Source of the DNA: an uncultured Rickettsiales bacterium | Lineage (GTDB): Bacteria; Pseudomonadota; Alphaproteobacteria; Rickettsiales; UBA1997 | Reading direction: 5' to 3' | DNA: 64,000 bases | NCBI GenBank assembly: GCA_944391075.1 | Contig: CALXSG010000004.1 | Coordinates: 10,445 to 74,444, forward strand | Shown: positions 3,499 to 31,025 of the stretch, piece by piece | Position numbering within the stretch: position 1 is the stretch's first letter | How the letters are laid out: each line of letters starts with the position of its first letter | Notes under the pieces: generated by a model | Database searches by the model: none | The model's input: the letters and a program-made list of their open reading frames with translations, nothing else | What the model was told of the DNA's origin: nothing | Translations under genes and position numbers: made by a program

Positions 3499-4323
3499 CT
3501 ATTTTTTATGACGACTTTTAATAATTAACTTGTTAGAAACTTTATTCTTCTTTCTAGTTCTACCACCTCTAGCACATACACCGGTTGGAGAAACTGGAAT
3601 TCTACCACCTCTTGTTCTACCACCAAGTGGATGATCAACAGGGTTCATAGATTCACCTCTAACGTGAGGTCTAATTCCTAACCATCTAGATCTACCTGCT
3701 TTACCAATTACTATGTTTTTGTTATCAGCATTAGAAACAGTACCTATTGTAGCTAAACAATCTAATGGGAATTTTTTAATTTCACCAGATTGTAATTTTA
3801 ATATAGCATAGCCATTATCTTTACCAGCTAATTGAGCAAATGAACCAGCACTTCTAGCTAATGTGGCACCAGCACCAACTTTTGTCTCAATATTATGTAT
3901 TAAAGTACCAACTGGTATAATTGCCATAGGCATTGTATTACCTGGTTTTATATCTAATAACTTTTTTGATGACATAATTTTATCACCAACTGCTAATTTA
4001 TTAGGTGCAATTATGTAAGATAAAATGCCGTCTTCATATTTAATTAAAGCTATAAAAGCAGTTCTATTAGGATCATATTCGATTCTTTCAACTACTGCTG
4101 GAACATCGAATTTATTTCTCTTAAAATCAACTAATCTATAAGCTTGTTTATGTCCACCACCTCTTCTTCTAACAGTAATTTGGCCTTTATTATTTCTTCC
4201 AGCTTTACTATTTAAAGGTTCAACCAACATTTTAACAGGAGAACCCTTCCAAAGGTCTGATCTATCAATTGTAATCAAACTTCTTTGTGCAGGTGTAATA
4301 GGATTATAATTTTTTATAGCCAT
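3499..4323 (-). CDS. rplB: 50S ribosomal protein L2 (uL2)
   Basis: 274-aa ORF with conserved [15 protein letters not shown] and [15 protein letters not shown] motifs. Confidence 0.97.
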
Positions 4324-5243: not shown

Positions 5244-5879
5244 CTATCCTCTCTTAGCTGTTTTGATAATAACATCTCTACCTTTAAAACCAGGGATAGC
5301 ACCTTTTACACAAATAATATTGTCAGCTGTATCAATATCAACAACTTTCAAATTCTTTACAGTAACTTGTTCATCACCTAATTGACCAGGCATTTTTTTA
5401 CCTTTAAATACTTTTGCTGGACTCATTCTATTACCGGTAGAACCAATAGATCTATGTGTAACTGAAACACCATGAGAAGCTTCAAGTCCTCTAAAATTCC
5501 ATCTCTTCATACCACCAGCAAAACCTTTACCTTTACTGATTCCAGTAATATCAACAAGAACAACACCATCTAAAAGAGCAGCATTTAAAATGTCGCCAAT
5601 ATTAACTGGTTTATCTTTTGACATTTTAACAGTTGTCATTTTTGAATATGGTTCTAAGTTCTTCTTTTTGTAAATACCAAGAATTGATTTATTTAATTTT
5701 TTTTCTGGATTCTTTGGTTTATCATAAGATAAAGTAACATTTAAGTAATCTTTACCTTCAATTTCTTTAATATCACTTACACAACACTCATAGAGTTGAA
5801 TAAGTGTAACAGGAGTAACAGCACCATTGCTGTCGTATATTCTACTCATTCCTATTTTTTTACCAACTATACCTAACAT
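5244..5879 (-). CDS. rplC: 50S ribosomal protein L3 (uL3)
   Basis: 211-aa ORF with [15 protein letters not shown] and GKGFAGGMKRWNF motifs. Confidence 0.96.
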   Translation of the reverse strand: MLGIVGKKIGMSRIYDSNGAVTPVTLIQLYECCVSDIKEIEGKDYLNVTLSYDKPKNPEKKLNKSILGIYKKKNLEPYSKMTTVKMSKDKPVNIGDILNAALLDGVVLVDITGISKGKGFAGGMKRWNFRGLEASHGVSVTHRSIGSTGNRMSPAKVFKGKKMPGQLGDEQVTVKNLKVVDIDTADNIICVKGAIPGFKGRDVIIKTAKRG

Positions 5880-6417: not shown

Positions 6418-7234
6418 TTATATATCTATAAGATGAATAGCAAATCTATTACCTTCTCTATGATCTGATTTTTTATATCTAAAAATACCATTCATATCAC
6501 CATGACCATCTACATCTATACCATCAATTTTTGTATCAAGTTTTTTTAATATATCATCATAACTTTGCTTAAAAGAAATTTGATCTTCCGATACCATCCA
6601 TATACTATGCTTCATTATATTATAAAACCAATCATTATTTTTACTATATCCAATAATTTGATGAAAAGTCCAAGGTAAATCAGAAAAAAACTTGGTAGTT
6701 GGAGCATGAAAATCATCTGGTGTAGGTTCAAAATCTATAATACCATTTAAATATAATTCAATATATGCTCCAGCATCACTTTTCTGAGCTTTATTATTGT
6801 ATGGACTTGAAAAACTATTAATTGAATAACTTTCTCCAGCTTTTCCTGTTCCATTAGGACAAGAATCACCACCACACCAAGCACCATTAAAACCATCATT
6901 ATTTAAATCTCCTGGCAATCTACCATATTTTACTTTAAATGTATATAAAGCTTGTTTCCACGAATTTACTTCATTAATAAAATTTCTCATTTTTGCACTC
7001 TCAATCAAACTAGCACCACCAGTTATACCAGCTACAAGAAGTCCTATTATTATAAGAACTATTGACAACTCAATCAAAGAAAAAGCAAGAATATTATTTA
7101 TTTTGAATTTAATGAAATTTTTATGTATACAATCAGTATTATTGTTTGAATTAACTATTTTGTTAAATTGTTTATAAAAAGCGCCCCCCCCCCCACAAAC
7201 TTTTGATAATATTTTTATTATTTATAATATTCAT
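6418..7234 (-). CDS. Prepilin-type (type IV pilin/pseudopilin-like) protein, paralog A. The leader is frameshifted at a G11 tract (apparent phase OFF)
   Basis: The ORF-track start at 7077 is a TTG that actually encodes the L of the class III signal motif A|FSLIELSIVLIIIGLL. The upstream ATG at 7234 is out of frame (157 nt, mod 3 = 1) and stops just after the tract. G10 would restore a leader homologous to paralog B. Confidence 0.8.
7184..7194 (-). repeat. Homopolymeric G11 tract (C11 on + strand) in the leader-coding region of prepilin A
   Basis: Direct count in gcgCCCCCCCCCCCacaaac. Flanks are conserved with the tracts at 8102 and 9133. Confidence 0.9.
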
Positions 7235-7319
7235 ATATTGTTAAATTATTATTATGACATTTCTATTTTTAATATAACTATTGATATTTTAAAAAAGCAA
7301 TAAATTATTAAAATATTTA

Positions 7320-8144
7320 TTATAAATCCATTAAATTTACACCTACTCTATTACCATATTTATGAGTATGTGGCTGATATCTAAAATTACCTGTCAAATC
7401 CCACTCCTCATCCATAATATGACCATCCAATTTCCTATCTATTTTTTTACATATTCGGTCATAACTACTTTTAGATATATAAGCAACATCCGAAACCAAC
7501 CACACACTCAAATTTTTTATATTATCTACAAACATTATAGCATTAGGATTTGAACTATATTTATATTCTACAAATTGATGAAATTTCCATGATAATTCAG
7601 GAAATACTATAATATGAGGCTTAACAAAATTTTCTGGATCTGGCTTGAAATCTATAATACCATTTAAATATAATTCAATATATGCTCCAGCATCACTTGG
7701 TTGTACTTTATTATTATATGGTTCTGGAAAACTATTAATTGAATAACTTTCTCCAGCTTTTCCTGTTCCGTTAGGACAAGCATTACCACCACACCAACCA
7801 CCTAAAAAACCATCATTATTTAAATCTCCTGGCAATCTACCATATTTTACTTTAAATGTATATAAAGCTTGTTTCCACGAATTTACTTCATTAATAAAAT
7901 TTCTTACTTTAGCACTCTCAATCAAACTTTGACCACCAATTATGCCGGATACCAAAAGACCAATAATAATTAATACTATTGATAATTCAATTAAAGAAAA
8001 AGCAAGAATATTATTTATTTGAGATTTAATGAAATTTTGATTTATACAATCAGTATTATTGTTTGAATTAACTATTTTGTTAAATTGTTTATAAAAAGCG
8101 ACCCCCCCCCCACAAACTTTTGATAATATTTTTATTATTTTCAT
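7320..8144 (-). CDS. Prepilin-type protein, paralog B, full length (apparent phase ON). About 47-aa leader, then FSLIEL...
   Basis: 274-aa ORF. ATG 8144 reads through G10 as ..KVCGGGVAFYK.. into ILA|FSLIELSIVLIIIGLLVSG, the prepilin cleavage/methylation motif plus hydrophobic helix. Confidence 0.88.
   Translation of the reverse strand: MKIIKILSKVCGGGVAFYKQFNKIVNSNNNTDCINQNFIKSQINNILAFSLIELSIVLIIIGLLVSGIIGGQSLIESAKVRNFINEVNSWKQALYTFKVKYGRLPGDLNNDGFLGGWCGGNACPNGTGKAGESYSINSFPEPYNNKVQPSDAGAYIELYLNGIIDFKPDPENFVKPHIIVFPELSWKFHQFVEYKYSSNPNAIMFVDNIKNLSVWLVSDVAYISKSSYDRICKKIDRKLDGHIMDEEWDLTGNFRYQPHTHKYGNRVGVNLMDL
8102..8111 (-). repeat. Homopolymeric G10 tract in the leader-coding region of prepilin B
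   Basis: Direct count in gcgaCCCCCCCCCCacaaac. Translated in frame as GGG(V). Confidence 0.9.
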
Positions 8145-8351
8145 ATTTATATTATTTTAATATTATTATTACAACCTTTGTACTTATAATATATTGTTTG
8201 ATGTGAAAGTCAATAAAATTTTTCTAATTATAAATATATACCAATTCTATTAGTAATAAAATTAATCTACTACTAATATAGTAATTATATAATAATTACA
8301 CCAATAAAATAAAAAATGATATTATTATAAATTAAACTTATTAATATTTTA

Positions 8352-9175
8352 TTAATAATCTATTAATGTCATAGATATATTACATGCAATATTATTTAAA
8401 ATAGATGTATTATAATCTGTATAACCATCACCGCAACTACTTCTAATACTACCAATATTATAAATACCATCATCATATTTTAAATCATAATTTCTCAAAT
8501 ATTTAGGATCAATTTCTTGTGTGGTATATATTGTTATTTGATTTCCAGGTTTTATCTTATACTTATAATGCATTGGGTTATTTAAATCTTCTCTTCTATG
8601 TTCATAATAATATTGACAATTCTTTAATATTTTTGAGTTAGGTTTGGCTTTATCACCTTTTTTTCCATATGTTGATAAATTAGCTTCTTTAGGCACAAAA
8701 TCAATAATTTTAGCTAAATATAAATCAACAAATGGGGCAGATATTTCATTAGGTATACCATATCCACTTCCTCCATTTTGATTATATGGGGCTGGAAAAC
8801 TATTTGAATTATAAGTTTGACCACTAAAAAGTCCAATAGAGCCAGAACCATTTAAATCACCAGGAGCTCTACCATTTAATGCCTTAAAAGTAAAATATGC
8901 TTGTTTATAACTATTAATTTCATCACCTAATGCTTTAATTTTAGTACTTTCAATGAGACTAGCACCACCTGTAACACCAGCTATAAGAAGTCCTATTATT
9001 ATAAGTACAATTGATAATTCAATCAAAGAAAAAGCAAGAATATTATTTATTTTGAATTTAATGAAATTTTTATGTATACAATCAGTATTATTGTTTGAAT
9101 TAACTATTTTGTTAAATCGTTTATAAAAAGCACCCCCCCCCCTACAATTTTAACTACTTTTTTATTATTTCCCAT
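8352..9175 (-). CDS. Prepilin-type protein, paralog C. The leader is frameshifted at a G10 tract (apparent phase OFF)
   Basis: The ORF-track start at 9026 is again the TTG of LIEL. ATG 9175 is 149 nt upstream (mod 3 = 2) and terminates at a TAG after the tract. G11 or G8 restores MGNNKKVVKIVGGGGAFYKRFNKIVNS...ILAFSLIEL. The C-terminal Cys pair (SSCGDG...NIAC) resembles a pilin D-region. Confidence 0.8.
9133..9142 (-). repeat. Homopolymeric G10 tract in the leader-coding region of prepilin C
   Basis: Direct count in agcaCCCCCCCCCCtacaat. Confidence 0.9.
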
Positions 9176-9396: not shown

Positions 9397-12300
9397 TTAT
9401 TTACTTTTCTCTATTTTTAATATTTCTATACTTTCAATACCATTTTTCTTTTCAATATCAACAATTTCATTTAAAGCAACGCCAATTAAAGCTTCACCAT
9501 AAAGTGTATGTTTATTAACAATGGCTATATCATTATCTATACAACTATTAGAATCTACAATTTTTATTTTAAACATTTTTCCATTATCTTTTTTTAATGT
9601 AATAATATCATTTAATTCAACAATATTTCTATTATTTAAAAATTTGTCTAATTTATTTTTAATGAATTTGATTTCTGTATCGTATATAACTTTGATTTGC
9701 TTATATTCTTTTATAAGTTGTGAATATTTTGCTATTACAATATTTTGATTTAATTTCCAATTATTAATTAAATTTTTAATTTTATACTTATTTATATTGA
9801 TGTTATATTGTTTTTGTTCTTCTTTTAGCTTTAAAATTAATAATTTTTCCTCAAAAATTAGCAATTGTTTTATATCATATTCGTTTAATGTTAAAAGAAA
9901 ATTTAAATCGCAATATCTTTTATATTCCGTATAGAGTTCTTTATAATATATTCTATTTTTCGCAACATAATAATTGTATTTGCGAATAGCATGTTTTTTA
10001 TTAAAATGTTTTAATATATTAATTTCTTTATTGATATAATTGAGTTTTTTATCAATATCTTTTAAAACACTGTATTTTGATTCTATATTATCAAATTCTT
10101 TAATATATTGATTCAAGTTTTTTCTTATTGTTTGCTTAATTTTTTTAATATTAATTAAAAAATCATAACTTTTATTGTAAAGATCTATAATTATTTTTGC
10201 ATTTTTTAAAATAAAATAATTATCATTATATAAAAATAATTCTAGAATATGTATATTTTCAATGTTATATTGTATATATTCTTCTCTTATATTATGTAAT
10301 TTTTGTTTTAATTTGCTTAATTCTTTAAAAATAATTACAGTTTCATTAAATATTGTGTTAAGTTTTACAAAAGTTTGAATATTAAATTTATTTTGATTGA
10401 TTTTTAATATAATAAAATGATATTTATTTATATTCAATTTATAATGAAATAGCTTTAATTTAATTTTGTATTTAATAATTTCCCTTTTGTGTAAGAGATA
10501 TTTTTTATTAGTCAACAATGTAGATAAATATTTTTCATCTAAAAACTCTCTAAGTTTTAAATATTCTAGTTCATTTAAGTTATAATAACTATTTTGTAAA
10601 TCTAAAAATTTAAGTAAATAACTGACTATTATCAAATTTTTATCTAAAGAATTTATATTAAAAAACTTATTGTGAATGTCATTTGCATTATTTATTATAT
10701 ATTCTTTTAATTTTTTAAAAGAATAATCCCAAAATTTATTATATAAATCTATTTCAGAACAAAACAAAAATGAGATTTTTTCAACACTCTGTAATTTTGA
10801 AATTTTATATGAATTCAATTCGTTATTAATAAATAATTTTTTTTGTTTTTCTAACCATTCATATAATCTTTGTTCTGAATTATTTCCTGTTTCTTCTGGT
10901 AATCTATCTCTATTTTCTATAAATTGTTTTAATTCTATAAAATTTACACTCCAACTCCCATAACTTCTTTTTATTATTTTTTCAAGAATAGCCTCTTCTA
11001 TTTGTTTATTATTAAAATTTTCTAATATTATAGAATCTTTTTTATCTTCTTCATGTTCTTCCTCATTTTCTTTTTTATTTATCTTATTATTCTTCTTTTT
11101 AAAATCCAAAAAAGACAAATTGATATAGCTTTCTATTCTTTCATCTTCATCTCCAATTTTCTTAATAATGTTAATCATTTCATTAAGATCTTTCTTTCTA
11201 ATCTTTATTTTTTTGTTTGTGCCTTCTTCTTCATATTCAACATTTTCAAAATTATTATCTAATGCTGTGTCAAAATTATTATCTGATAACTTTTCTTGAT
11301 AATATATTGGTATTACTATGTAACCGAATTCTTTTTCTTTTCCATCTTTATCTTTATATTTTCTCAATGCTCTTCCGGCTGACTGCACAATATCAATAGT
11401 GGATTTTTTAATATTTGAATAAAAAATCATATCAACTTTTGGAATATCAACTCCTTCTGACAAACACCTAGCATTTGAAATTAATGATTTTTCAGAATTC
11501 TTAAAATTTAACATTATTTCATTTCTTTTATCAGCATCTATTTTACTACTTATACAATAAGAATCAAAATTTTTAAAAAATTGTTTATGCCTATCAGCAA
11601 AATTTTCGGCCTTTTTAATTTTTGAATGAAATGTTATAGCATGTTTTAAATTATACTTTTCCATGATTAAATTACATGCATAATTATCAGCAATATCTTG
11701 ATATGATATATTTTTATCAATTATTTTTCCTGATTTTATATAGTTCTCTATCTCCAAATCAGTAATACCAACACCTATTATTTTATAATCAACTAAAATA
11801 TTTTCATCAATAGCCTTTTGAAAACTCATTTGATATATAACATCTCCAAAAGTTTTTATGTCATCCATATTAAAAACATTTTCATTTATATATTTATAAA
11901 CTTGATTGAACTGGCTATTATAATTATTATCATAATTCTTGTTATCATCATCAGTATTATAATAATCTGTATTAACCACTCTAGGTGTAGCAGTCATATA
12001 TAATCTTTTTTTAACTTTTATATAATCATTACTATGTATTTTTTTAAAATGTGTTATTTTTGAATTAATGATCTCTCCGGCTGTTCTATGTGCTTCATCA
12101 CAAATCGCCAAGTCAAACACTAACTCTTCATCCTTAATAGCTTTAATCACCTTATCTAAGGATTGATATGTAGAAAAAATAACTTTATTTTTACAGGTAT
12201 TAGCTAATAAAAAACTTTTTATTATATTACTATCAGTTGTAACCTTAAATACAGGTTCCTCAATAAATTCTTCATCATATTCCTCTTCATCATCCTCATC

Positions 12301-12561
12301 TACATCTTGGCTTGAACAAACACAAAGATAATTAAAATCAATATTTTTTTCTTCTTTCCAATTATCTTTAGTTTGTTTAATTAGGCTAATAGATGGAACC
12401 AATACAATAGTTAACTTTGACTTCAAAGCTTCATGTGTCCATAAAGAAATCAAAGTCTTTCCAGAACCACAAGGTAAAATAATTTTTCCCCTATCATTTT
12501 CTTTAAAATATTCAACAATACACTTTATAACATCTTCTTGATATTTATACGGTTTTTTCAT
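9397..12561 (-). CDS. Large SF2 (DEAH, ResIII-like) helicase with an HA-like domain, a long N/K/I-rich coiled region and a GreA/GreB-C-like C-terminus
   Basis: - Motif I LPCGSGKT, motif II DEAH, motif III MTATPR, motif VI QSAGRALR.
- Residues ~535-592 (SWSVNFIELKQFIENRDRLPEE...LYEWLEKQKK) resemble the helicase-associated (HA) domain.
- The last ~75 aa (IVD...VNKHTLYGEALIGVALNEIVDIE...IEILKIE) resemble the GreA/B C-terminal fold. Confidence 0.75.
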   Translation of the reverse strand: MKKPYKYQEDVIKCIVEYFKENDRGKIILPCGSGKTLISLWTHEALKSKLTIVLVPSISLIKQTKDNWKEEKNIDFNYLCVCSSQDVDEDDEEEYDEEFIEEPVFKVTTDSNIIKSFLLANTCKNKVIFSTYQSLDKVIKAIKDEELVFDLAICDEAHRTAGEIINSKITHFKKIHSNDYIKVKKRLYMTATPRVVNTDYYNTDDDNKNYDNNYNSQFNQVYKYINENVFNMDDIKTFGDVIYQMSFQKAIDENILVDYKIIGVGITDLEIENYIKSGKIIDKNISYQDIADNYACNLIMEKYNLKHAITFHSKIKKAENFADRHKQFFKNFDSYCISSKIDADKRNEIMLNFKNSEKSLISNARCLSEGVDIPKVDMIFYSNIKKSTIDIVQSAGRALRKYKDKDGKEKEFGYIVIPIYYQEKLSDNNFDTALDNNFENVEYEEEGTNKKIKIRKKDLNEMINIIKKIGDEDERIESYINLSFLDFKKKNNKINKKENEEEHEEDKKDSIILENFNNKQIEEAILEKIIKRSYGSWSVNFIELKQFIENRDRLPEETGNNSEQRLYEWLEKQKKLFINNELNSYKISKLQSVEKISFLFCSEIDLYNKFWDYSFKKLKEYIINNANDIHNKFFNINSLDKNLIIVSYLLKFLDLQNSYYNLNELEYLKLREFLDEKYLSTLLTNKKYLLHKREIIKYKIKLKLFHYKLNINKYHFIILKINQNKFNIQTFVKLNTIFNETVIIFKELSKLKQKLHNIREEYIQYNIENIHILELFLYNDNYFILKNAKIIIDLYNKSYDFLINIKKIKQTIRKNLNQYIKEFDNIESKYSVLKDIDKKLNYINKEINILKHFNKKHAIRKYNYYVAKNRIYYKELYTEYKRYCDLNFLLTLNEYDIKQLLIFEEKLLILKLKEEQKQYNININKYKIKNLINNWKLNQNIVIAKYSQLIKEYKQIKVIYDTEIKFIKNKLDKFLNNRNIVELNDIITLKKDNGKMFKIKIVDSNSCIDNDIAIVNKHTLYGEALIGVALNEIVDIEKKNGIESIEILKIEKSK

Positions 12562-12654: not shown

Positions 12655-13278
12655 TTATTTATAATTTTCTCTTTTTTCTTTACCAAATTGAAAACCAACC
12701 ATATCAATAAGTTTCATAGGCGGATAATCATAGCAAAGTGATTCTTGTTCAAAATAAAAACACCAAATTTCTTTTAAAGATTTTTGCGATAAGGTCTGTG
12801 TTATTTTATTTTCTCTTAAAAATAATTTAAAATTGGTATCATATGCTGGTGTTGATGCAGAAGTGCCTAATAAAATTTTAGTAATCAATGTGTCTGTTGT
12901 TGATATTTCCCTATGCTCATAATATTTCTTTAATTTTTTAATAGTCTTATATACTATATCAGTATATGCATCTATTTCGTTAATATTTTTAGGATATTTT
13001 TTTAATTCTATTAAATCTTCAAGTAAAATTTTTATTATAGGCTTATGAATTAAATAATTATAATCTGTTAACAATTTTGAAGATCCTCTCATCATCCCCC
13101 AACTGCCCAAATATAAAGCTAAACTTCGTGCTAAAAAATCATCATCATAACTTTGTCTTGATTTTAATGCTTTATTAAAATCATCAAATATAATATTCCA
13201 AGAATAATATCTACCTTCTTCCTTATTTTTTATATCATTAATATTTAGAAAATTATCTATATATTTTTTAATCATCAT
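12655..13278 (-). CDS. Hypothetical protein (207 aa), immediately upstream of and co-oriented with the helicase
   Basis: Clean ORF with non-low-complexity sequence (LALYLGSWGMMRGSSKLL, ITKILLGTSASTPAYD). I recognise no family. Confidence 0.55.
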   Translation of the reverse strand: MMIKKYIDNFLNINDIKNKEEGRYYSWNIIFDDFNKALKSRQSYDDDFLARSLALYLGSWGMMRGSSKLLTDYNYLIHKPIIKILLEDLIELKKYPKNINEIDAYTDIVYKTIKKLKKYYEHREISTTDTLITKILLGTSASTPAYDTNFKLFLRENKITQTLSQKSLKEIWCFYFEQESLCYDYPPMKLIDMVGFQFGKEKRENYK

Positions 13279-14300: not shown

Positions 14301-16517
14301 TTACATGCAACTATTAATAGTTCTGCTAATAACATCTAATTGTTGTTCTTTTGTTAATTTAATGAAATTAACAGCATAACCAGAAACTCTAATTGTGAGT
14401 TGTGGATATTTTTCAGGATGGTTCATAGCATCTTCAAGTAATTCTCTAACAAATACATTTACATTAAGATGTTGACCACCTTTTGGTGTAAAGTAACCAT
14501 CAAGTAAAGATACAAGGTTAGTGATTTGCGAATCTTTGTCTTTACCTAATGCTTGTGGAGTAATTGCAAATGTGTATGAAATACCATCTCTTGAATAAGC
14601 AAATGGAAGTTTAGCAACAGAAGATAAAGCTGCAATAGCACCTTTTGTATCTCTACCATTCATAGGGTTAGCACCAGGAGCAAATGGAGTACCAGCTTTT
14701 CTTCCACAAGGTGTAGCACCTGTATTCTTTCCATAAACAACATTTGATGTAATTGTTAAAAGTGATTGAGTTGCTAATGCTCCTCTATATGTCTCATGGC
14801 TAGCCATATAACCCATAAATGTTTTTACTAAATCACAAGCAATTTTATCTGCTTCTTCATCATTATTTCCAAAAGGAACATAATCACCTTCTCTTTCAAA
14901 ATCAACAGCTAAACCTTGTTCGTTTCTAATAACTTTTACTTTGCAATTTTTAATAGCATTTAATGAATCAGCAACAATAGAAAGTCCTGCAATACCTGAT
15001 GCTTCAAATCTTTCTACATCTGTATCGTGTAAAGCCATTTCATATGCTTCATAATCATATTTGTCATGCATGTAGTGAATAATTTTTAAAGCATTACAAT
15101 ATGTTTTAGCAAGCCATTTCATCATTTGATTAAATTTTGCCATAACTTCATCATAATCTAAATATTCACTTGTAATAGGTTCAAACATAGGACCAACTTG
15201 ATCGCCATGAATTTCATCTTTACCGCCGTTTATAGCATAAAGTAAACATTTTACTAAATTAGCTCTTGCGCCGAAGAATTGCATTTGTTTACCAATTTTC
15301 ATTGATGAAACACAACAAGCAATACCATAATCATCACCATAAATTGGTCTCATTAAATCATCGTTTTCATATTGAATAGCAGATGTATCAATAGAAACTT
15401 TTGCACAGAATTTTTTCCAATTTTCAGGAAGATTTTCAGACCATAAAACTGTTAAGTTTGGTTCTGGTGCAGGACCTAAATTATATAATGTATTTAAGAA
15501 TCTAAAAGATGTTTTTGTAACAAGTGTTCTTCCATCAACACCCATACCACCAAGTGATTCTGTAACCCAAGTAGGATCGCCAGTAAATAATGAATTATAT
15601 TCAGGAGTTCTTAAGAATCTAACAATTCTTAATTTAATAATCATTTGATCTACTAACTCTTGTGCTTCTTCTTCTGTTAATTTTCCTTCTTCAATATCTT
15701 TTTCAATATAAATATCAAGGAAAGTTGAAACTCTACCAAGAGACATAGCAGCACCATCTTGATCTTTTACAGCTCCTAAATATGCAAAGTATACCCATTG
15801 TACTGCTTCTTTTGCATTTGTAGCAGGTTTTGATACATCAAAGCCGTAATTAGCACACATTTTTTTGAATGATTTTAAGGCATTGATTTGTTCTGTAAGT
15901 TCTTCTCTCTTTCTAATAATATCTTCAGTATATTCTTCACCACCCATATTTTTGAAATCTTTTTGCTTTTCCTCAATCAATCTATCAACACCATATAAAG
16001 CAACTCTTCTATAATCACCAATAATTCTACCTCTACCATAAGCATCAGGTAAACCTGTAATTATGTGAGCATGTCTGCAAGCTCTAATATCTTGATCGTA
16101 TGCTGAAAATACACCATCATTATGTGTTTTTCTGTATTTTGTAAAGATTTCTTTTGTTAATGGGTCAAGTTCATAACCATAAGATTTTAAAGCTGTTTCA
16201 ACCATTCTTAAACCACCTTTTGGAAAAATACCTCTTTTTAATGGTTTATCTGTTTGAAGTCCAACAATAGTTTCGTTGTCTTTATCAATATAACCTGCAC
16301 CATAAGTTTCAAGACTTTGTGGGAGTTTAGTTTCAGCATCATAAACTCCTTTTTCTCTTTCAACTTTAAACATTTCTGTAAGTTTATCCCAAACTTTTTT
16401 TGTTTTTTCTGTTGCTGGTTTTAAAAATTTATCATCACCAGTATATGGTTTATAATTTTCTTGTATAAAATCTCTAACATCAATTTCATCTTTCCAATAT
16501 TCACCTTTAAAGTTCAT
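14301..16517 (-). CDS. pflB: Pyruvate formate-lyase (formate C-acetyltransferase)
   Basis: Glycyl-radical motif RVSGYAVNF near the C-terminus, active-site GIACCVS, and an N-terminus ([27 protein letters not shown]) typical of PFL. I prefer the ATG at 16517, which has a GGAG RBS 8 nt upstream. The ORF track extends to 16583. Confidence 0.93.
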
Positions 16518-16683
16518 ATTTACTCCATTTTTGTTAATAAAATTCATAAATCTTCTTATAACACATTTAATTCTTATTATCAAGAAAAAAATATTTTATA
16601 ATTTTTATCATAAATATATACTATAAATTATTAATTATTTATTTTAATAAAATTTCATAACAATATTTATAATAAAAATATTT

Positions 16684-17304: not shown

Positions 17305-18384
17305 ATGCTTGAAAATATTAAAGAGAGAATATTAAATGGTGGATCTTCAGATAATATAATATCTAGAAATAATGTTTTATTTTTAATTTTATTATTATTA
17401 TTCATGTTAATGTTTTGTCCATCAAATAAACTTGACTGGCTTGGAGTATTTTTTACAATGTTTAGCACAATGAGCAACGATTCAGTGCAAACACTTGGAA
17501 CTTTTATAACCTCAAATTCAAAAACATCATGGCTAAAAATGTGGCTATATATTGCTATACTATTTATAATAACTTTATTATTAGCATGGTTTCTTAATGA
17601 TTATAGATTAGATTTTAATAAGTTAGTTTTAATTCCGTATCATAATGATAACGATTTTATGCATTATGTTCCACCAATTTTATTGATAATCTTAACTTAT
17701 TATAAAATACCTGTAAGTTCTACATTTTTAATTTTATCAGTATTTGCATCACAAAGAGCAATTAGCATTGTTTTACTAAAAACATTAATTGGTTATACTA
17801 TTGGCTTTGGAATTAGTTATTTGTTATGGAGAATAATATTAAAATTTTTTAAGATTCTTCTATCTAATGAAGGAACTGAAAAAAGGTTAAGAATATGGAA
17901 AAAGCTACAATGGTTATCAACAGGAATTTTGTGGGTTTCTTGGTTAACAAATAATACATCTAATATAGTTGTTTATTTGCCACGAGCATTTTCAGTACAT
18001 GATTTAATATTGTTTTTAATATTAGGTATTCTTTTTATTGGTTTTACTTTTTACAATCATGGCGGACCTATTCAAAAAATTGTTAGTGAAAAAAAAGATA
18101 TTACAAATATTAGATCAACATCTATAATAAACATATCTTTTGCATTCGTCATTTTATTATTAAATAAAGTTAGTAATGCACCTATGGCAACCACATGGGT
18201 TTTTATTGGAATATTAGCCGGCAGAGAGTGGTGTATAGCACAATTAGAAAATGATGGTGTGTTAACATTAAAAGAAAGATACAAACGTGCTAGAAAATTA
18301 ATTTTTAAAGATTTAATTTTAGCAGGTTTAGGAATAGCAATATCTTTAACATTTGCCATGATTAATAATTTTTATATAAAATAG
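17305..18384 (+). CDS. Polytopic integral membrane protein with a tentative PiT/PHO4-like signature
   Basis: About 10 hydrophobic segments. SNDSVQTLGTF has the ND-x5-GT spacing of the PiT motif GANDVANAFGTS. The true start is uncertain (several in-frame Met). Confidence 0.5.
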   Translation: MLENIKERILNGGSSDNIISRNNVLFLILLLLFMLMFCPSNKLDWLGVFFTMFSTMSNDSVQTLGTFITSNSKTSWLKMWLYIAILFIITLLLAWFLNDYRLDFNKLVLIPYHNDNDFMHYVPPILLIILTYYKIPVSSTFLILSVFASQRAISIVLLKTLIGYTIGFGISYLLWRIILKFFKILLSNEGTEKRLRIWKKLQWLSTGILWVSWLTNNTSNIVVYLPRAFSVHDLILFLILGILFIGFTFYNHGGPIQKIVSEKKDITNIRSTSIINISFAFVILLLNKVSNAPMATTWVFIGILAGREWCIAQLENDGVLTLKERYKRARKLIFKDLILAGLGIAISLTFAMINNFYIK

Positions 18385-18392
18385 GAGAGAAT

Positions 18393-19118
18393 ATGGAAAA
18401 TATTTTTTATATTATAACATCTTTAATATTTGGTTCAGTATTTGGAAGTTTTATTACGGCAGCTAGTTATCGTTTACCGCGAAATGAGACAATGTGGACT
18501 AGATCACATTGTCCTAAATGCAACAAAATATTAAAGCCAATTTCATTAATACCAATATTTTCATGGTTATTTCAAAAAGGAAGATGTTTAAATTGTGGTG
18601 AAAAAATTTCTATAAGATATCCATTGACAGAAATTATAACAGCCATTTTATTTTTATTATCATACTTAAAATTTGGCTATAATTTTAATACAATAATAGT
18701 TGATGCTTTTATGGTTATTGGTATGATAATGATAGTTTCTGACTTAGAAACATATACAATACCGGATTCCACACAACTTGCTTTATTAATTACAGCTATA
18801 ATATTTAATTTATATAATGATTTTGATTTATTATATTCAACATTTTCTGCATTAATTTATTTTGCAATGATATTTGTTTCAAGTTTAATAGTATCAAAAT
18901 GGAAGAAAAAAGATGCAATAGGTGGTGCAGATCTTAAATTAATAACCATTTGTGGTCTAGTTTTAGGTATTCTGGCTTTACCTTTATTCTTTTTATTCTC
19001 AGGTTTATTTGGTATAGTATTTGGTTTAGCATGGCAAAAAATTAAAAAGAATGAATATTTCCCATTTGGTCCTGCATTAATTGCATCATTCTTATTTTTA
19101 ATATTTTATTTATCTTAA
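18393..19118 (+). CDS. pilD: Prepilin peptidase / N-methyltransferase (A24 family, PilD-like)
   Basis: Zinc-ribbon-like CPKC...CLNCG pair, and catalytic Asp contexts (SDLETYTIPD and GGADLKL) typical of A24 peptidases. Confidence 0.88.
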   Translation: MENIFYIITSLIFGSVFGSFITAASYRLPRNETMWTRSHCPKCNKILKPISLIPIFSWLFQKGRCLNCGEKISIRYPLTEIITAILFLLSYLKFGYNFNTIIVDAFMVIGMIMIVSDLETYTIPDSTQLALLITAIIFNLYNDFDLLYSTFSALIYFAMIFVSSLIVSKWKKKDAIGGADLKLITICGLVLGILALPLFFLFSGLFGIVFGLAWQKIKKNEYFPFGPALIASFLFLIFYLS

Positions 19119-19912: not shown

Positions 19913-22900
19913 TTATTTATTTATCTTATCTTTAACACTAGCAACCACTTTACCAGGTACAGATTTGATACCATTCCAAGCTTTACCAGGAGCTTCTTTT
20001 GCAAAATTATAAGCAGTACTTGCACCTCTTTTAATACCATTCCAAGCTTTGCCAGGAGCTTCTTTTACTGTAGTATAAGCCTTAACAGCACCATCCTTTA
20101 TATCATTTGCTTTTTGAATAGCAGCATTTTTAATATTTTCTCCTCTTTGTTGCCATGTTTCTTTCTTGAAATTTTTAGCTACATTACCCCAAGTTCTCTT
20201 AACTCCTGCCGTAAAGCCATCTCTATTCCATTCTTTAAATCCATCTCGAACATATCTACCAAATTTTTTACCTGCATTAACAGCAACTTTTTCCGTACCC
20301 TTTGCAATTTTAGCAACATCTTTAATTCTATTTCTGAATTTTTCACCAGTACCTCCAAAGCTCATATTTCCTTCAGCATCATCTGGTGCAGAAAATATTC
20401 TCTTTGAAAAATTTGGTATTTCATCTAACACTTTTACCATCATATATATAACAACTAATACACCACATAAATAACTAAAAATAGCCAATGGATTTTTATA
20501 TATATGACTAACCGAATAAAAAAGGGCATCCAAACCAAAAAAATTTAATATTTTTTCACCAAAAGCCTTTTCACCTTCTGCTGGGCTATTAGGATTATTT
20601 GCAATAAAACATAAAAAACTTAAACCATTATCATCACAAGTTACAGATGGTAATCTACCAGTATAAGGATCATGGCCATAATATCTACCATCACCAAGTA
20701 CTACATCATCTATTGTTAATAATGCAAAACCTATAAAACCCATTAATAATATCATCTGAAAACAAGCACCCATTAAGTTGGAGAGCCAATTATCAAAAAT
20801 ACCTTTATATTTTGCTATTAACAAAAATGGAAAAATAAAAGGTGAAACAAAAATTAATAATGTAATCATCATAATATTTGTAATATATATATAAAATACC
20901 TTAAAAGATAAGACAAAAACTAAGAATAACATAAATGTTAGTACAAACACTACAAGCATACCAAAAGTTGCACTAAAAAGACAAGATATTAAAAATACAA
21001 TTAATGTTCCACTGCTTACACTTATACCATAATAATTTAATATCTTACAATCTAGTGTATCAAACACCATCAAATATTCTTTACCATCAGGGTATTCGTT
21101 ATCACCAAAATAGCAACCATCATATCTATCACTATATGATGCAACAGGATTACCATTTTCATCATAATCTGTATAGTAACGACAGTTACTGTAATATGTA
21201 TTCTCCATAATTTGTTGATTATCATCATTAGATATTAATAATGACGTTTTATATTCAATATCGACAGGTAATTCTGTTGGTAATACACTTACATCTTCTA
21301 TTATCTTATCTTCTTCTAAACCAACAGGAGTAATTTTAACCTTGTTATATTGAGGTGCCATCATATCTTCACTACAATTTGAATAGCACTTTCTAATAAT
21401 AACAATGTTTCCAAATTCATTTGTTTCATTAATGACATCGCATACCTCTTCACCATTAGAAGCATTAATAACATCCTCCGGCAGTTCTTCTACATTTATT
21501 TTTCGATAACCGTTATATAGAATATCAACATCATTAGAATCTGATGGTTCTGATGTAATATAACATATAGTAGCCTTTCCATTTCCAATATTTACACCGT
21601 TATCACCACCACTATTACTTACTATTTTTGTATTAACGTAGCCAGAGCCTCCTCCGCCTCCACCTGTAAGATACATATTTTGACTGGATGTATAATAAGC
21701 AACCATACTCGATGCTCCACCGCCATAATAACCTCCTCCACCACCACTTCCACCCGCATATCCATCTTGTCCACTTCCACCTTTACCAAACACTCCATTA
21801 TTTAAAGCACAATAATTTAATACACTTGCAGAATTTACCCTTTCAAAATTACACTTATTTCCTAATGCATCACAATTTTGAATACATTTATTATTACTTA
21901 TACAATCTTCATAGCTTAAACACAATGAATTATTAATACAATCATTTATAATATCTTGTGTTTTACATATAAAATTATAAGAGCAGCTACCACCAATACC
22001 ACCAGAAGTTAATGTGCCAGGCGATCCAAAACACTGTCTATTATCTTCACTAAAAATATTGTTACTTTGTCCACCTGAATTATTTCCACCACCCCCATCT
22101 CCACCGGAAAATACACCATTATAAGAAATTCCACCACCACCACCGGCAACCATAATTCTAGATTCCAAACTTCTTTGTGTATTAGTACCACTATCAATTA
22201 ACGTTCTAATATCAGTAGCCCCACCACCTCCATGTCCAACAAGATTTTGATAGCCATAACCACCATTTCCACCACCATTATAACCGCCACAAGAAAAATA
22301 ACTTCCATACATATTTTTAATCTCTTGAGAACAATTTTCATTAGATGCTACACCGCCCACATAAATATATAATTTATTCGGTATTAAAACTTTGGTAAGA
22401 TCTAATTCTCCATATGTATAACCACCTTTTCCCACATTAGCTGTGACTAATTGTCCATTAGCACCTATTACTGGATTGCCATTATTTATAGTATTTGTCA
22501 ATTCTGAACTTGCGCCATATAATTCAACAATTATTTTTAAATAATCACTAGATATATTAAATTCATATTCACCAGGTTCTGAATAAACTGTACAATTCTC
22601 AAGAATTTCTCTAGTTTCAGTATAATAACATTGCTTTACCTTACCTTTAGTAGTAATTTCGTGTTCTTTTCTAACATCACATACAACATTTAAAAAATCA
22701 TTTTTATAATCATCATAATCTAAAAAAGAAAATTCAAACATCTTTGCATTCACAAAACGCAAAGCTTCCATTAGCCAATTATAGAATTTTGTTTGCCAAG
22801 CATTAGTTAATGAAAAATATAACACAATAGCTATTTTAATCAACATCATAATAATAGCTTTAACACTTTTTGTATTAAAAACATCAAGTTCACCAGTAAT

Positions 22901-25051
22901 TAAAAATTTGGCAGAAGCTATTACTATTGCTAAAGTAATAAATAATATTATTATATGTCTAACAGTATTTTGAATCCTAAAAAATATATTATTCTCCTGA
23001 GGTAACTCTTCACCAATTATATAATTATATGCATTTTTATCTCCAGAATATTCAGCATTATATTTTTCATGCCTAATTTCACCAGGTTTAGAAAAAGTAT
23101 CGCGTCCACATAAACCTTCGCTATTAACTGTTTCATCGCTAGATTTACAAGAACTTGTACCAGCTATATTTAAAAACATATTTTTTATAGCCTCTGTGAT
23201 ACACTCAGCCATAGGAGATAAAAAACCTCTAGGCCCACCACCTACAAACCCTGCTATTTCTATATCTTCTAATTTAACTGGATATTGAAAATTTTGCCCA
23301 GAACCCTTAGTAAAATCAAAACATACCTCAGGCAAAAATTTATTATGTGTATCATTTTCATCGGTTATAATTGAATACGTAATAGGCATTTCCTCATATT
23401 CCACACAATGCACATTTTGCTCACAAAAATTTTTTACATTACCATATGATGATGCATGCGTACTTGCAACCGCAGTCGATGTTGTTTCCCATATTTTATC
23501 ATAATCTTGTCCATATCTTGACTGCCATTCATCATAATTATTATTTTCCTTATCTTCACTATCAAAAGGATTCTGACAAGATATATAATCACCATCACAG
23601 TATAAATCTTTAATTTCAGTTCCATATGAAACATTAAAATTATAAGGAAACAAATTAGCCGATCTAACACATAATTTTTTTGATTTTGATGAGCCAACAT
23701 AATAAGAATTTTTATCTAGCACACCTTCATATAATTTATAATAAACTTTTCTATCACCTTTAATATTTAAAGAACAAATATGACTATTATTAGCCATACT
23801 CTGATTTGAGCAAAATGCTATACTATGTTGTCTTGATATTGTGTTATTATTCTCTACTGTAAAATCATAATTTAGACCATTTATTTTTGTATAATAACCG
23901 ACATTTTGAGTTAATTTATTTGGTGCATATAAACAAATACCTCCATTACTTCTTTTTTCACAACATTGTTTAGCTAAACTAAAAAGTAATTCACATTCTT
24001 TAGAATTTCTTGAATATTCAGTTCCATTCATATCAATGCATGGATTGCCTTTATAATCGAATCTATCACAAGCATAATTAGCGGTTTGAGAACCTCTAAA
24101 ATAATATCTTTGCTCATTACTCTTATAGCCTTTTTCTCCTTCAATTCTTGGATCAAAACATCCATAATTTGAACTGTATATCATTTTATTATTAACTACA
24201 ATATCATTATATACAGTGTCAATATGATTACTATTTCTAGGTATTGAAAACTCTTCACCTTCGTATAGCATTTCTCTATAAAAGCGATTTTTTTTATTCC
24301 GTGTAGCAATATTCATTCCAGCGCAATTTGTAGCATCACAAAATTTACTATCTATAAGCATAGAAACCACTGGAAAACACTCTTGTTTAAATTTAGTACA
24401 CTTTGAACCATTATCTAAATTAGCAGTCTTTATACAATCATTTATTATATCTTTTTTTAATGTAACAGTTCCATCATTGGCAACACTAAAATAATTATCA
24501 CAATTATATTTACCAGAAAAAATATTTGATAATTTATATTCATAAGAGTTAGAAAATGCTCCAAATGCTGGATACCAATTAATTTTCGGAGTATTTTTAA
24601 CATTACTAGACAATATTGCATATGTATTCCAATCATAACCGCATATTTTTACAGCATCCCTAATTTCATTTATATCGCCAGTAGAAAATTCATTAGTTAA
24701 AGATCTATTATTAAGAATATAGTTCTGTTCTGTCGTTTTAACAGCACTACCACTAGCTGAACAATATAAAGGAATATTGCCATCATCATCAGTAACAAAA
24801 GCTATATTATTGTTTATAACAGATGACAAATCTACTAAAGCATTGTTTATACCTTGTACTAGTATTGTTGCTTTATTACAAGAATCAATATCCCCATCTA
24901 GAGCTGTATAACCTTTATCCTCTTTTAAAAAATCGGAACATTTAACAATAGACGAAGCAAACGACACTTTTAAGCTATAACTCAACAACGATATAGCTAT
25001 ATATAATATTATTTTTAATATAAAATTTACCTTTTTTCTTATTATCTTCAT
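19913..25051 (-). CDS. Giant VirB6/TrbL-like T4SS inner-membrane protein (1712 aa)
   Basis: Domain order:
- Signal peptide.
- Cys-rich ectodomain.
- Glycine-rich loop domain.
- Polytopic core containing the TrbL/VirB6-like segment LIFVSPFIFPFLLIAKYKGIFDNWLSNLMGACFQ.
- Repeat-bearing basic C-tail.
It follows virB3-virB4 and a VirB6 paralog, and it is paralogous to 25129-28158 over multiple motifs. Confidence 0.8.
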   Translation of the reverse strand: MKIIRKKVNFILKIILYIAISLLSYSLKVSFASSIVKCSDFLKEDKGYTALDGDIDSCNKATILVQGINNALVDLSSVINNNIAFVTDDDGNIPLYCSASGSAVKTTEQNYILNNRSLTNEFSTGDINEIRDAVKICGYDWNTYAILSSNVKNTPKINWYPAFGAFSNSYEYKLSNIFSGKYNCDNYFSVANDGTVTLKKDIINDCIKTANLDNGSKCTKFKQECFPVVSMLIDSKFCDATNCAGMNIATRNKKNRFYREMLYEGEEFSIPRNSNHIDTVYNDIVVNNKMIYSSNYGCFDPRIEGEKGYKSNEQRYYFRGSQTANYACDRFDYKGNPCIDMNGTEYSRNSKECELLFSLAKQCCEKRSNGGICLYAPNKLTQNVGYYTKINGLNYDFTVENNNTISRQHSIAFCSNQSMANNSHICSLNIKGDRKVYYKLYEGVLDKNSYYVGSSKSKKLCVRSANLFPYNFNVSYGTEIKDLYCDGDYISCQNPFDSEDKENNNYDEWQSRYGQDYDKIWETTSTAVASTHASSYGNVKNFCEQNVHCVEYEEMPITYSIITDENDTHNKFLPEVCFDFTKGSGQNFQYPVKLEDIEIAGFVGGGPRGFLSPMAECITEAIKNMFLNIAGTSSCKSSDETVNSEGLCGRDTFSKPGEIRHEKYNAEYSGDKNAYNYIIGEELPQENNIFFRIQNTVRHIIILFITLAIVIASAKFLITGELDVFNTKSVKAIIMMLIKIAIVLYFSLTNAWQTKFYNWLMEALRFVNAKMFEFSFLDYDDYKNDFLNVVCDVRKEHEITTKGKVKQCYYTETREILENCTVYSEPGEYEFNISSDYLKIIVELYGASSELTNTINNGNPVIGANGQLVTANVGKGGYTYGELDLTKVLIPNKLYIYVGGVASNENCSQEIKNMYGSYFSCGGYNGGGNGGYGYQNLVGHGGGGATDIRTLIDSGTNTQRSLESRIMVAGGGGGISYNGVFSGGDGGGGNNSGGQSNNIFSEDNRQCFGSPGTLTSGGIGGSCSYNFICKTQDIINDCINNSLCLSYEDCISNNKCIQNCDALGNKCNFERVNSASVLNYCALNNGVFGKGGSGQDGYAGGSGGGGGYYGGGASSMVAYYTSSQNMYLTGGGGGGSGYVNTKIVSNSGGDNGVNIGNGKATICYITSEPSDSNDVDILYNGYRKINVEELPEDVINASNGEEVCDVINETNEFGNIVIIRKCYSNCSEDMMAPQYNKVKITPVGLEEDKIIEDVSVLPTELPVDIEYKTSLLISNDDNQQIMENTYYSNCRYYTDYDENGNPVASYSDRYDGCYFGDNEYPDGKEYLMVFDTLDCKILNYYGISVSSGTLIVFLISCLFSATFGMLVVFVLTFMLFLVFVLSFKVFYIYITNIMMITLLIFVSPFIFPFLLIAKYKGIFDNWLSNLMGACFQMILLMGFIGFALLTIDDVVLGDGRYYGHDPYTGRLPSVTCDDNGLSFLCFIANNPNSPAEGEKAFGEKILNFFGLDALFYSVSHIYKNPLAIFSYLCGVLVVIYMMVKVLDEIPNFSKRIFSAPDDAEGNMSFGGTGEKFRNRIKDVAKIAKGTEKVAVNAGKKFGRYVRDGFKEWNRDGFTAGVKRTWGNVAKNFKKETWQQRGENIKNAAIQKANDIKDGAVKAYTTVKEAPGKAWNGIKRGASTAYNFAKEAPGKAWNGIKSVPGKVVASVKDKINK
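19968..20066 (-). repeat. 66-nt-period direct repeat encoding KEAPGKAWNGIK x2 in the C-terminal tail of the giant VirB6-like protein
   Basis: The 33-nt units at 19968-20000 and 20034-20066 differ at one base (ataccattccaagctttRccaggagcttctttt). Confidence 0.85.
21554..22576 (-). other. ALK/LTK-type glycine-rich domain (Pfam Gly_rich-like) inserted in the VirB6-like protein (residues ~826-1166)
   Basis: Signature string: GEYEFNISSDYLKIIVELYGA...LYIYVGG...CGGYNGGGNGGYG...GHGGGGATDIRT...RIMVAGGGGG...GGDGGGG...GGSGGGGGYYGGG...LTGGGGGGSGYV...GNGKATICY. Confidence 0.7.
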
Positions 25052-28100: not shown

Positions 28101-28158
28101 TATTACTATATAAAGTTAAACAAATAATAAAAATAATTTTATAAATATTTTTTATCAT
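25129..28158 (-). CDS. VirB6/TrbL-like T4SS inner-membrane protein with a Cys-rich N-terminal ectodomain (~1009 aa from the preferred start)
   Basis: Signal peptide MIKNIYKIIFIICLTLYSNISDTFA. The polytopic region contains LFLSPIIIPTLLFKKFNGIFQKWFKNLLGYAIQP, a VirB6/TrbL hallmark. The preferred ATG at 28158 overlaps the virB4 TGA as ATGA. The ORF track extends to 28194. Confidence 0.82.
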   Translation of the reverse strand: MIKNIYKIIFIICLTLYSNISDTFADLNLSRPLEQVYEVTEDGSDGLKFSSSFKIIGYNWVSGEPIIFEKDNSKWEMDNGYCWWNQSFGGFDFKDKFSISQSVLLNFKICGANWLTYGNEQAINDYNKAGGCEAGNCSAFANIKKYYPTRGAFNGSYKFEVNKCVRNINDCDGVVALERCQKGNNDNTCQPVDGGNYFTQNDRVFRENMYDGEEIINYACIDPRPEAKNYDIFRGEEQAYQTYYMRGYDYGNYLCERYLEKRSKTGDAFDIAYQCCLKAQQSVCIYKNEKNNLATFCSIYDNECKVDDIKFKVFKNFTVDSEVENTNRYCIKTYNLCPDNVNVEGGSDYATSVFERIPNEDSMKACQDSGDYANCEIQYDKDDCNDNGVVYPLCEGKNKNFFQYNRHCTQVSNNNIEFIYANTYSPYLDKACLNLVGNSHNTTGYASYSAYNRAVDLYPKTIFAPAVECVVETMKNLLLNKAGHTRCKVISETPNHMNECESGEIFKAGQEFDTNIVSSDGVDSYKHPLQDIIRYTKNITYMFIAFAISLYGYNVLIKGGALGSRYDIVMLIVKISFIVALTVNTSWYNLIFKFTYALNDLLFSTVSKIGFETLVDEHGNLVRDDGCYFGDITSLRFTDDSPEIIEAIAKYDNNYDDYPSDRRYVSFFDALDCKIAKYFGYSAFDNGTGWGIVKLYVLSIIWPFGLGLFIGFISMFLGITLFIFALKIVYIYVASMIAITILLFLSPIIIPTLLFKKFNGIFQKWFKNLLGYAIQPFVMVAFVSISIMIIDNFMLGSGLFTGSGPNKELVCGFACYDQDTGDLVAYTSKRNAFVSYYLNTEINDLEKQGISQEQKELEMQKIWINVLDKLKGNADLKNCKSGDKIIDIKRNSPLCLMSNISTDLVFGIIFRITDVVINDVITLLSILILVVVLDNMLNRVPRIASTLTGSAAIPGLGADVNPMVVAGKAVQTVLFVKRLTVGAVKKIVNKSSTSKLREKVAAQKEQDKG

Positions 28159-30861: not shown

Positions 30862-31025
30862 AAAAAATATAACGTTATATAATATATATATTAACAAGTA
30901 TAAAACTAAAATCAAGAAAAAAACAAAGATATTTTTGTTTTTTAAAAAAATCAAACTATATAAAAGTGTTGCAATATTAAAAAATAAAATTAAAATTATA
31001 GTAATTTGAATGAATAAGGAAAAAA

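Follow-up and report, generated by a model that had tools for sequence, protein, structure and literature searches.

Three tandem pilin-like genes in a 64-kb stretch of DNA (the window; positions 10,445 to 74,444 of contig CALXSG010000004.1, labelled as an uncultured Rickettsiales bacterium) very likely undergo slipped-strand, frame-shifting phase variation. The genes lie on the minus strand and are designated here gene 1 (6418-7234), gene 2 (7320-8144), and gene 3 (8352-9175) in window coordinates. Each carries in its leader-coding region a homopolymer tract, which is a run of C on the plus strand and a run of G on the coding strand. Translational phase variation of this kind had been proposed in a first-pass annotation made from the sequence alone, and the proposal is supported by assembly differences that fall only in the tracts, by the existence of both ON and OFF alleles, by a leader that is open in the pilin frame, and by recurrence of the arrangement in a related species.

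Tract positions and reading frames

A tract scan placed G11 at 7184-7194 in gene 1, G10 at 8102-8111 in gene 2, and G10 at 9133-9142 in gene 3. The tracts begin 40, 33, and 33 nt after the ATG codons at 7234, 8144, and 9175, respectively, so that the lengths, positions, and spacing of 33-40 nt given in the first-pass annotation were all confirmed. No other G/C run in the window exceeds 5 nt, the next longest being exactly that length, which agrees with its remark that no other comparable run had stood out. At the window GC content of 26.6%, the chance expectation for runs of C10 or longer is approximately 6e-4. A long homopolymer within an open reading frame (ORF), one of the hallmarks of a contingency locus, is thus found in genes 1, 2, and 3. 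The S10 ribosomal operon starts at 6202, directly downstream of the array, as had been reported.

In gene 2 the ATG reads through the tract into a single continuous ORF of 274 aa (MKIIKILSKVCGGGVAFYK...NNILAFSLIELSIVLIIIGLL) with a 47-aa leader, in which the Ala(−1) codon at 8001-8003 is followed by Phe(+1); this gene is ON, as annotated. Both outer genes are OFF from their ATG codons in the window assembly, with stops 3 and 9 codons past the tract. Translation of gene 1 from ATG 7234 yields a 20-aa peptide (7172-7234; MNIINNKNIIKSLWGGGRFL) ending at TAA, while its 219-aa body is intact in the +1 frame; G10 or G13 would place the ATG in frame, and G12 or G9 would place an overlapping GTG in frame. 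Translation of gene 3 from ATG 9175 yields a 23-aa peptide (9104-9175; MGNNKKVVKIVGGGVLFINDLTK) ending at TAG, with an intact 224-aa body; G11 or G8 restores the frame. The first-pass annotation had called both genes OFF and had named G13 and G11 among the restoring lengths, and public data contain both repaired products: gene 1 in frame with G13 (...SLWGGGGAFYKQ...) is protein P0003 of locus L002, and gene 3 in frame with G11 (MGNNKKVVKIVGGGGAFYKRF...) is protein P0157. Changes in tract length therefore toggle between an intact and a truncated frame, with the ON products P0003 and P0157 on record.

The starts assigned by the ORF finder at 7077 and 9026 are TTG codons for the first Leu of FSLIEL, where gene 2 has TTA; this supports the earlier view that they are not real starts. 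Gene callers faced with such loci give TTG-start proteins of 219-224 aa or 'MGGG...' proteins, which mask both the true start and the switch and constitute an annotation hazard. An alternative genetic code was considered and rejected, in that the long ORFs are clean in table 11 and the OFF-frame stops are both TAA and TAG.

Genes 1 and 2 each have a GTG that straddles the 5' end of the tract (7195-7197 and 8112-8114, minus strand), formed by the GT before the tract plus its first G. It comes into frame at a second tract length, which for gene 1 is G12, the commonest state (10 of 16 contigs); it is absent from gene 3 and from most of the tract-bearing genes of E20__bin249, a related metagenome-assembled genome (MAG). 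This GTG may be an alternative start giving a shorter leader, and 'OFF' may then not be strictly two frames of three in genes 1 and 2. Approximately half of the window genes, including these pilin genes, are without a Shine-Dalgarno-like sequence, which makes the sequence a poor guide to use of the GTG.

Tract length differs between otherwise identical arrays

The window assembly (ENA analysis ERZ24773436, contig NODE_150, 92 kb) was compared over the 3.9-kb array with two others, L002 (ERZ28614828) and L084 (ERZ28615501). Each of the latter had 0 mismatches to the window and exactly two gaps, both at tracts. In the order gene 3/gene 2/gene 1, the tracts were G10/G10/G11 in the window, G11/G10/G13 in L002, and G11/G10/G12 in L084; the lengths in L002 put the ATG of every one of the three genes in frame. 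The tract-length comparison in related genomes that the first-pass annotation had suggested as a check thus found lengths differing among the window, L002, and L084, and repeat length is polymorphic between otherwise identical arrays, a further hallmark of contingency loci.

An exact-protein look-up gave the distribution of alleles in public contigs. The ON form of gene 2 was on 16 contigs, and gene 3 was divided between the ON form P0157 (8 contigs) and the OFF form P0156 (8 contigs). For gene 1, G11 (P0008) was on 5 contigs, G12 (P0134, called from GTG as MGGGGAFYKQ...) on 10, and G13 (P0003) on 1. Uniform homopolymer noise would not give this pattern, because one G10 tract is constant (16/16) while another G10 splits 8:8.

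The combined states recorded are OFF/ON/OFF, ON/ON/ON, and ON/ON/G12. The suggestion that the system selects one of three subunits is not borne out by these states; from the alleles the three switches look independent, which would amount to combinatorial display.

Two other strains also carry tracts at this position. L003, a 95%-identical strain, has G10/G10/G11 in the same gene order, and the gene at the gene 1 position is out of frame. Only one pilin gene precedes the S10 operon in L085; it carries G11 and is likewise out of frame.

The leader segment between tract and pilin motif

No ATG or GTG occurs between the tract and the pilin motif in genes 1-3, and in gene 2 there is no TTG either. 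The post-tract leader segments (gene 1, 7087-7183; gene 2, 8004-8101; gene 3, 9036-9132; all minus strand) are open only in the pilin frame. A broader comparison took in 24 distinct post-tract segments, drawn from the window and from related loci. They contained 9 stops in the pilin frame, 7 of them in one outlier, vs. 111 and 45 in the two shifted frames; 21 of the 24 were open in the pilin frame, vs. 0 and 1 in the shifted frames. Because the leader is open only in the pilin frame and no start codon follows the tract, we conclude that the tract is part of a maintained coding region and that a shifted ribosome would stop quickly.

The post-tract segment is also unusually uniform among the three paralogs. 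Its 97-98 nt are 94-98% identical, with no synonymous differences, whereas the adjoining segment encoding the protein-invariant helix is 73-88% identical, with 6-11 synonymous codon differences; identity falls to 57-78% in the gene bodies and to 60-67% in the upstream 100 nt. Leader alleles differ between genomes and are common to the paralogs within one genome, and in L003 the body of gene 3 is joined to a leader of the gene 1 type. These patterns are most simply read as gene conversion among paralogs of a cassette made up of leader and tract, although constraint on the post-tract segment at the nucleotide level may be an alternative.

A bolder suggestion, which we put forward tentatively, is that the long Ala-terminated leader might be a portable switch module, consisting of a G or C tract and the stop-rich other frames, spread and homogenized by gene conversion among the many pilin paralogs of the lineage, with combinatorial and possibly three-state control (long leader from ATG, shorter leader from GTG, or OFF). 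If so, a class III leader would have been lengthened specifically to house a switch. An exact-pattern scan of Joint Genome Institute (JGI) metagenome contigs for the conserved leader cassette gave no match.

Proteins encoded by the array

The three proteins and 21 aligned relatives share the invariant block A-F-S-L-(I/V)-E-L-S-(I/V)-V-L-I-I-I-G-L-L, with Glu at +5, and the conserved motif FSLIELSIVLIIIGLL includes this Glu5. Phe1, Glu5, and a run of approximately 21 hydrophobic residues, as expected of a type IV pilin, are all present (FSLIELSIVLIIIGLLVSGIIGG); F49, E53, and the hydrophobic run are invariant. Weak matches to N_methyl and GspG also speak for pilin identity, and some family members carry a precomputed match to PF07963. 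An AlphaFold2 (AF2) model built on the family alignment (pLDDT 78, pTM 0.70) combines a disordered leader with a long helix (residues 36-101) and a head of beta-strands, and the PDB structures nearest to it, though weakly matched, are two C. difficile type IV pilins, PilA1 and PilW. When PDB sequences were searched with a profile, the match was confined to the N-terminal helix of a Geobacter pilin.

A prepilin peptidase of the A24 family, PilD-like, is encoded at 18393-19118 on the plus strand (A24_N_bact, E 1.6e-30; Peptidase_A24, E 1.8e-14), and leader removal would be expected to fall to this enzyme. The family has a fourth pilin-like member in the window, at 36680-37414 on the minus strand. 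It has a 12-aa leader, MYKSLQQIKKES, joined to AFTMVEAVIVLVV (AFTMVEA), and no tract, and may be constitutively expressed; tract-bearing genes thus make up 3/4 of the pilin-like genes in the window.

Related loci and the pilin family

In a scan of species-representative genomes, every relative came from a MAG with the label 'uncultured Rickettsiales bacterium' or 'Rickettsiales bacterium', apart from those in one MAG labelled Rhizobiaceae. There are many pilin paralogs per relative MAG, with at least 26 loci in E20__bin249. In that MAG 14 pilin genes carry G9-G11, located 16-33 nt past the ATG and 44-112 nt before the codons for A-FSLIEL, with leader sequences unrelated to those of the window. 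Only 3 of these 14 genes can be read in frame from the ATG; 1 can be read from a GTG only, and 10 are out of frame. The in-frame share is close to the one-third that free-running switches should show, and is not what sequencing error in intact genes would produce.

In some paralogs poly-C, encoding PPP, replaces poly-G: C9 in L059 (~3897-3905) and C10 in L167 (~7030-7039), both out of frame with the ATG. Occurrence of poly-C at the equivalent place in other paralogs argues that homopolymers were recruited convergently. L167 and L168, from the same study, also have the window-type leader, with G11. A T2SSE/MshEN (PilB-type) ATPase of 598 aa (E 7e-124) is encoded just upstream of a tract-bearing pilin gene in E20__bin249, and a PilT-like ATPase gene adjoins a pilin gene in another MAG.

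We retrieved 170 family proteins. Twenty-six have the complete arrangement ATG...GGG...motif, 39 were called from the tract (M[W]GGG...), and 28 are N-terminally truncated calls; the rest comprise 23 with short leaders of the MNNNK-AFSLIEL type and 54 with long leaders lacking a G run. The last group includes interrupted tracts (e.g., CGVLGIFYK and WIRNNFYK), plausibly alleles locked in the ON state. It also includes repetitive leaders rich in N, I, and K, 93-166 aa long and with no G tract, which were observed on some alleles of the same pilin bodies in P0122, P0130, P0135, P0136, P0144, and P0155, and at L004 1-155; such lengths are extraordinary for a prepilin leader.

As a control we used distant pilins that share the N-terminal helix, obtained by a protein-guided scan of JGI metagenome contigs. 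Among 92 pilin motifs from these unrelated environmental contigs, 0 had a G/C run of at least 8 nt within 220 nt upstream. Non-pilin G/C runs of at least 8 nt in a related MAG were examined as candidate coding tracts and rejected, as they are GC-rich intergenic repeats. Such non-coding repeats occur in the AT-rich genome of a related Nepal MAG, with units CCCC(C)TTATCAGGGG(G) and an inverted 'gtcagtctacgactgac' core, at L034 ~350-510, L055 ~5540-5700, L060 ~2000-2200, L063 ~100-270, and L077 ~2560-2800.

Weighing phase variation against other explanations

Several observations weigh against interpreting the array as phase-variable type IV pilin genes. Canonical class III leaders are hydrophilic, 6-26 aa long, and end in an 'invariable' Gly(−1) (PMC4471445). 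The window genes have no short leader ending in Gly(−1): the residue at −1 is Ala, invariant over 21 aligned family members, and their leaders are 47-52 aa, about twice the longest textbook leader, with a range of 5-166 aa across the family. Gene 2 scored below the curated cut-offs for N_methyl (PF07963; 14.4 bits vs. 21.2), TIGR02532 (15.6 vs. 16.3), and GspG (24.3 vs. 88.85). The best PDB matches of the AF2 model, C. difficile PilA1 and PilW, were weak (E 0.05, probability 0.91, TM 0.31/0.57), and a Pfam scan of approximately 53 window ORFs revealed neither an assembly ATPase nor a platform protein. On the side of the tract lengths, all of the sequences are metagenome consensus assemblies, most likely short-read, in which runs of G10-G13 are error-prone. 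The treatment of the contigs as one set of 16 from the same strain follows from matching protein totals rather than contig-level inspection, and the three assemblies and 16 contigs may not come from independent samples.

With respect to the proteins, we have called genes 1-3 type IV pilin-like, because the helix and Glu5 are present and a peptidase is encoded nearby, but the residue at −1 is not Gly, the leader is not short, and the scores fall below the curated thresholds. The first-pass designation 'prepilin' accordingly stands as far as FSLIEL, Glu5, and the helix are concerned, and does not hold for the cleavage-site residue (Ala), the leader length of 47-52 aa, or the sub-threshold family scores.

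With respect to the tracts, the frameshifts might be homopolymer length errors in three genes that are all truly in frame. The sizing of G tracts in sequencing data is notoriously hard, and G10-G13 is difficult with Illumina and PCR (PMC9187656); the coverage of the contig is only ~22x, and pure error would also confine the assembly differences to the tracts. Such an artefact is very unlikely, however, given that the gene 2 tract is the same in 16/16 contigs, that gene 3 is divided 8:8 between G10 and G11, and that gene 1 varies from G11 to G13, including a 2-nt difference. The 10 of 14 tract genes out of frame in E20__bin249 are far above what error on in-frame genes would give, and an artefact leaves unexplained both the confinement of G/C runs to pilin leaders at 26% GC and the stop-rich shifted frames. 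We regard as highly improbable the possibility that genes 1 and 3 are pseudogenes, redundant duplicates inactivated at a mutational hot spot with the tract not an adaptive switch. The bodies of the OFF genes are full-length and intact over 219-224 codons despite stop-prone AT-rich DNA, other assemblies have these genes in frame while being otherwise unchanged, the post-tract leader is open in the pilin frame in the OFF copies too, and long G/C runs persist in many paralogs of two species under strong AT pressure. What speaks for decay is that two of the three copies are frameshifted in the window, that copy number is strain-variable (L085 has one frameshifted copy), and that the tract has been lost in some alleles.

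A switch acting on transcription, with the tract in a promoter or 5' untranslated region setting promoter spacing as in Neisseria opc and translation starting past the tract, is extremely unlikely. Promoter-like hexamers (TTAACA-N17-AATAAT) do occur in the conserved segment just past each tract, and distant homologs have short leaders such as MNNNK-AFSLIEL, but a sigma-70 scan is uninformative in such AT-rich DNA (50 promoter-like matches vs. 33 expected from shuffles). The tracts lie within the ORF, not outside it near promoter elements as in loci of the opc or fim type: the ON-allele ORF is continuous from the upstream ATG, and both the absence of ATG and GTG between tract and motif (and of TTG in gene 2) and the opening of that segment in the pilin frame only (21/24 vs. 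0/24 and 1/24) contradict a downstream start. Scans of the window for terminators found none, and Rfam and tRNA scans of the window gave no match. RNA polymerase slippage or ribosomal frameshifting could instead yield some product from every allele, with tract length tuning the level. Long homopolymers are known to support productive transcriptional slippage, a subject that comes up in the discussion of PMC9187656, and slippage of RNA could add to that of DNA; productive transcriptional slippage is best documented at A/T runs, less so at G runs, and differences in length are demonstrably present at the DNA level between assemblies. As the sole mechanism it is unlikely; RNA-level slippage may add leakiness, and is no substitute for the observed DNA-level differences.

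Proposed mechanism and its implications

We favor slipped-strand phase variation with the following features. Each gene is laid out as an ATG, 11-13 codons, a tract of G10-G13, 32 leader codons, Ala followed by Phe-Ser-Leu-Ile-Glu-Leu, and the hydrophobic pilin helix. Polymerase slippage on the G run at replication would gain or lose G residues and so bring the ATG into the pilin frame or take it out, and these changes would be reversible within a lineage. In frame, the product would be a prepilin with a cytoplasmic leader of 47-52 aa, which the A24 peptidase, encoded 10 kb away, would cut after Ala(−1), and the glycines encoded by the tract would be discarded with the leader. Since the tract is in the removed leader, the mature protein should be unaffected by 3-nt changes (GGG vs. 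GGGG, both recorded). Out of frame, translation would stop 3-9 codons later, both shifted leader frames being rich in stops. The mature subunits would assemble into a filament, and the population would present changing combinations of pilus subunits, providing variation in adhesion or escape from antibodies or pilus-specific phages.

The mechanism itself is conventional; as far as our searches show, what is new is the gene class, the leader architecture, the family size, and the host lineage. The literature searched contained no account of the pilins of this lineage or of tract-bearing prepilin leaders, its incomplete coverage making this weak evidence of absence. The design places the switch in the filament subunit itself, within the leader that should be cut away, and multiplies it over paralogs (at least 14 in one related MAG). 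If phase variation is correct, it adds an uncultured, anaerobic, gut-associated, Rickettsiales-labelled lineage to the users of hypermutable contingency loci, points to type IV pilus-like filaments as the main variable surface structure of the lineage, and hints at strong fluctuating selection from the host, antibodies, or pilus-specific phages.

Host organism and other genes in the window

The gene content fits an anaerobic, fermentative, Gram-negative alphaproteobacterium related to Rickettsiales-labelled MAGs, and the names of related MAG records suggest a gut source. A Pfam scan identified pyruvate formate-lyase (14301-16583), a lactate/malate dehydrogenase (49656-50720), and AdhE (51701-54328), all on the minus strand; a desulfoferrodoxin gene was observed in the related contig L167 (288-668). 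These four genes point to a fermentative anaerobe, which is unusual for Rickettsiales-labelled genomes. The earlier guess of a host-associated alphaproteobacterium is consistent with the nearest public MAGs, which are labelled 'uncultured Rickettsiales bacterium', but the gene content is that of a fermentative gut anaerobe. In its statements about the sequence, the first-pass annotation was correct throughout. The window also encodes TrcR, an alphaproteobacterial cell-cycle regulator, and enzymes that modify lipopolysaccharide.

A type IV secretion cluster on the minus strand comprises VirB3 (30562-30954), VirB4 (28155-30548), and a TrbL/VirB6-like gene (25129-28194), and is followed by a gene (19913-25051, minus strand) whose 1712-aa product contains a glycine-rich domain of the ALK/LTK type. 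Upstream of the pilin array, a 1054-aa ResIII/Helicase_C protein is encoded at 9397-12561 on the minus strand; its long C-terminal half is K/N/I-rich, with a weak GreA/B-like end. L085 (1-4000) has other small ORFs in place of the ResIII/Helicase_C gene and of two pilin genes, and the region upstream of the S10 operon is for this reason considered strain-variable. The ORF at 17305-18384 (plus strand, 359 aa), immediately upstream of the prepilin peptidase gene, and that at 12655-13278 (minus strand, 207 aa) had no Pfam match at E 0.1.

Comparison with known systems

Two parallels come from Neisseria. The opa genes occupy approximately 11 loci, carry CTCTT repeats in the region encoding the leader peptide, and switch independently by slipped-strand events (PMC3960869; PMC3745409). 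Like them, the array is a multigene surface family with the repeat in a leader that is expected to be cleaved, which would keep it out of the mature protein. The opa genes differ in having a pentamer repeat, in encoding outer-membrane beta-barrels with a Sec signal peptide, and in belonging to a betaproteobacterial pathogen. Jonsson et al. reportedly described, in 1991, a poly-G tract in the signal-peptide region of Neisseria pilC that turns piliation ON and OFF by frameshifting. The likeness there is that a type IV pilus gene has a run of G where its signal peptide is encoded; in contrast to the window genes, PilC is a tip adhesin and assembly factor, is present in one or two copies, and has an ordinary signal peptide.

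In the sortase-dependent pili of Bifidobacterium breve, an intragenic G10 or G11 in the first gene of the cluster decides whether the ORF is continuous, with G11 less stable than G10 and with apparent selection in vivo (PMC9187656). This again is a G tract of G10/G11 in pilus genes of a gut bacterium, but the pili are Gram-positive sortase pili, the tract is in the mature region between ORF halves, and only two loci are involved. The AT-rich genome of Campylobacter has rare poly-G/C runs that are concentrated in phase-variable genes for surface structures (PMC6321876). The window resembles this phasome in its scarce poly-G/C runs, located at surface-structure genes of an AT-rich genome. The targets known in Campylobacter are mostly glycosylation, capsule, and flagellar-modification genes rather than pilins or leader-located tracts.

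Homopolymer length likewise controls a surface protein at Bordetella fim. For Neisseria opc, expression of the surface protein is controlled by the length of a poly-C tract in the promoter (PMC3960869). Unlike that promoter tract, which acts on transcription, the window tracts are inside a maintained ORF. Finally, the products resemble canonical type IV pilins in F-S-L-I-E-L, the hydrophobic helix, Glu5, the nearby prepilin peptidase, and the predicted helix with a beta-sheet head, and differ from them in Ala(−1) and in a leader of 47-52 aa, extending to 166 aa in homologs.

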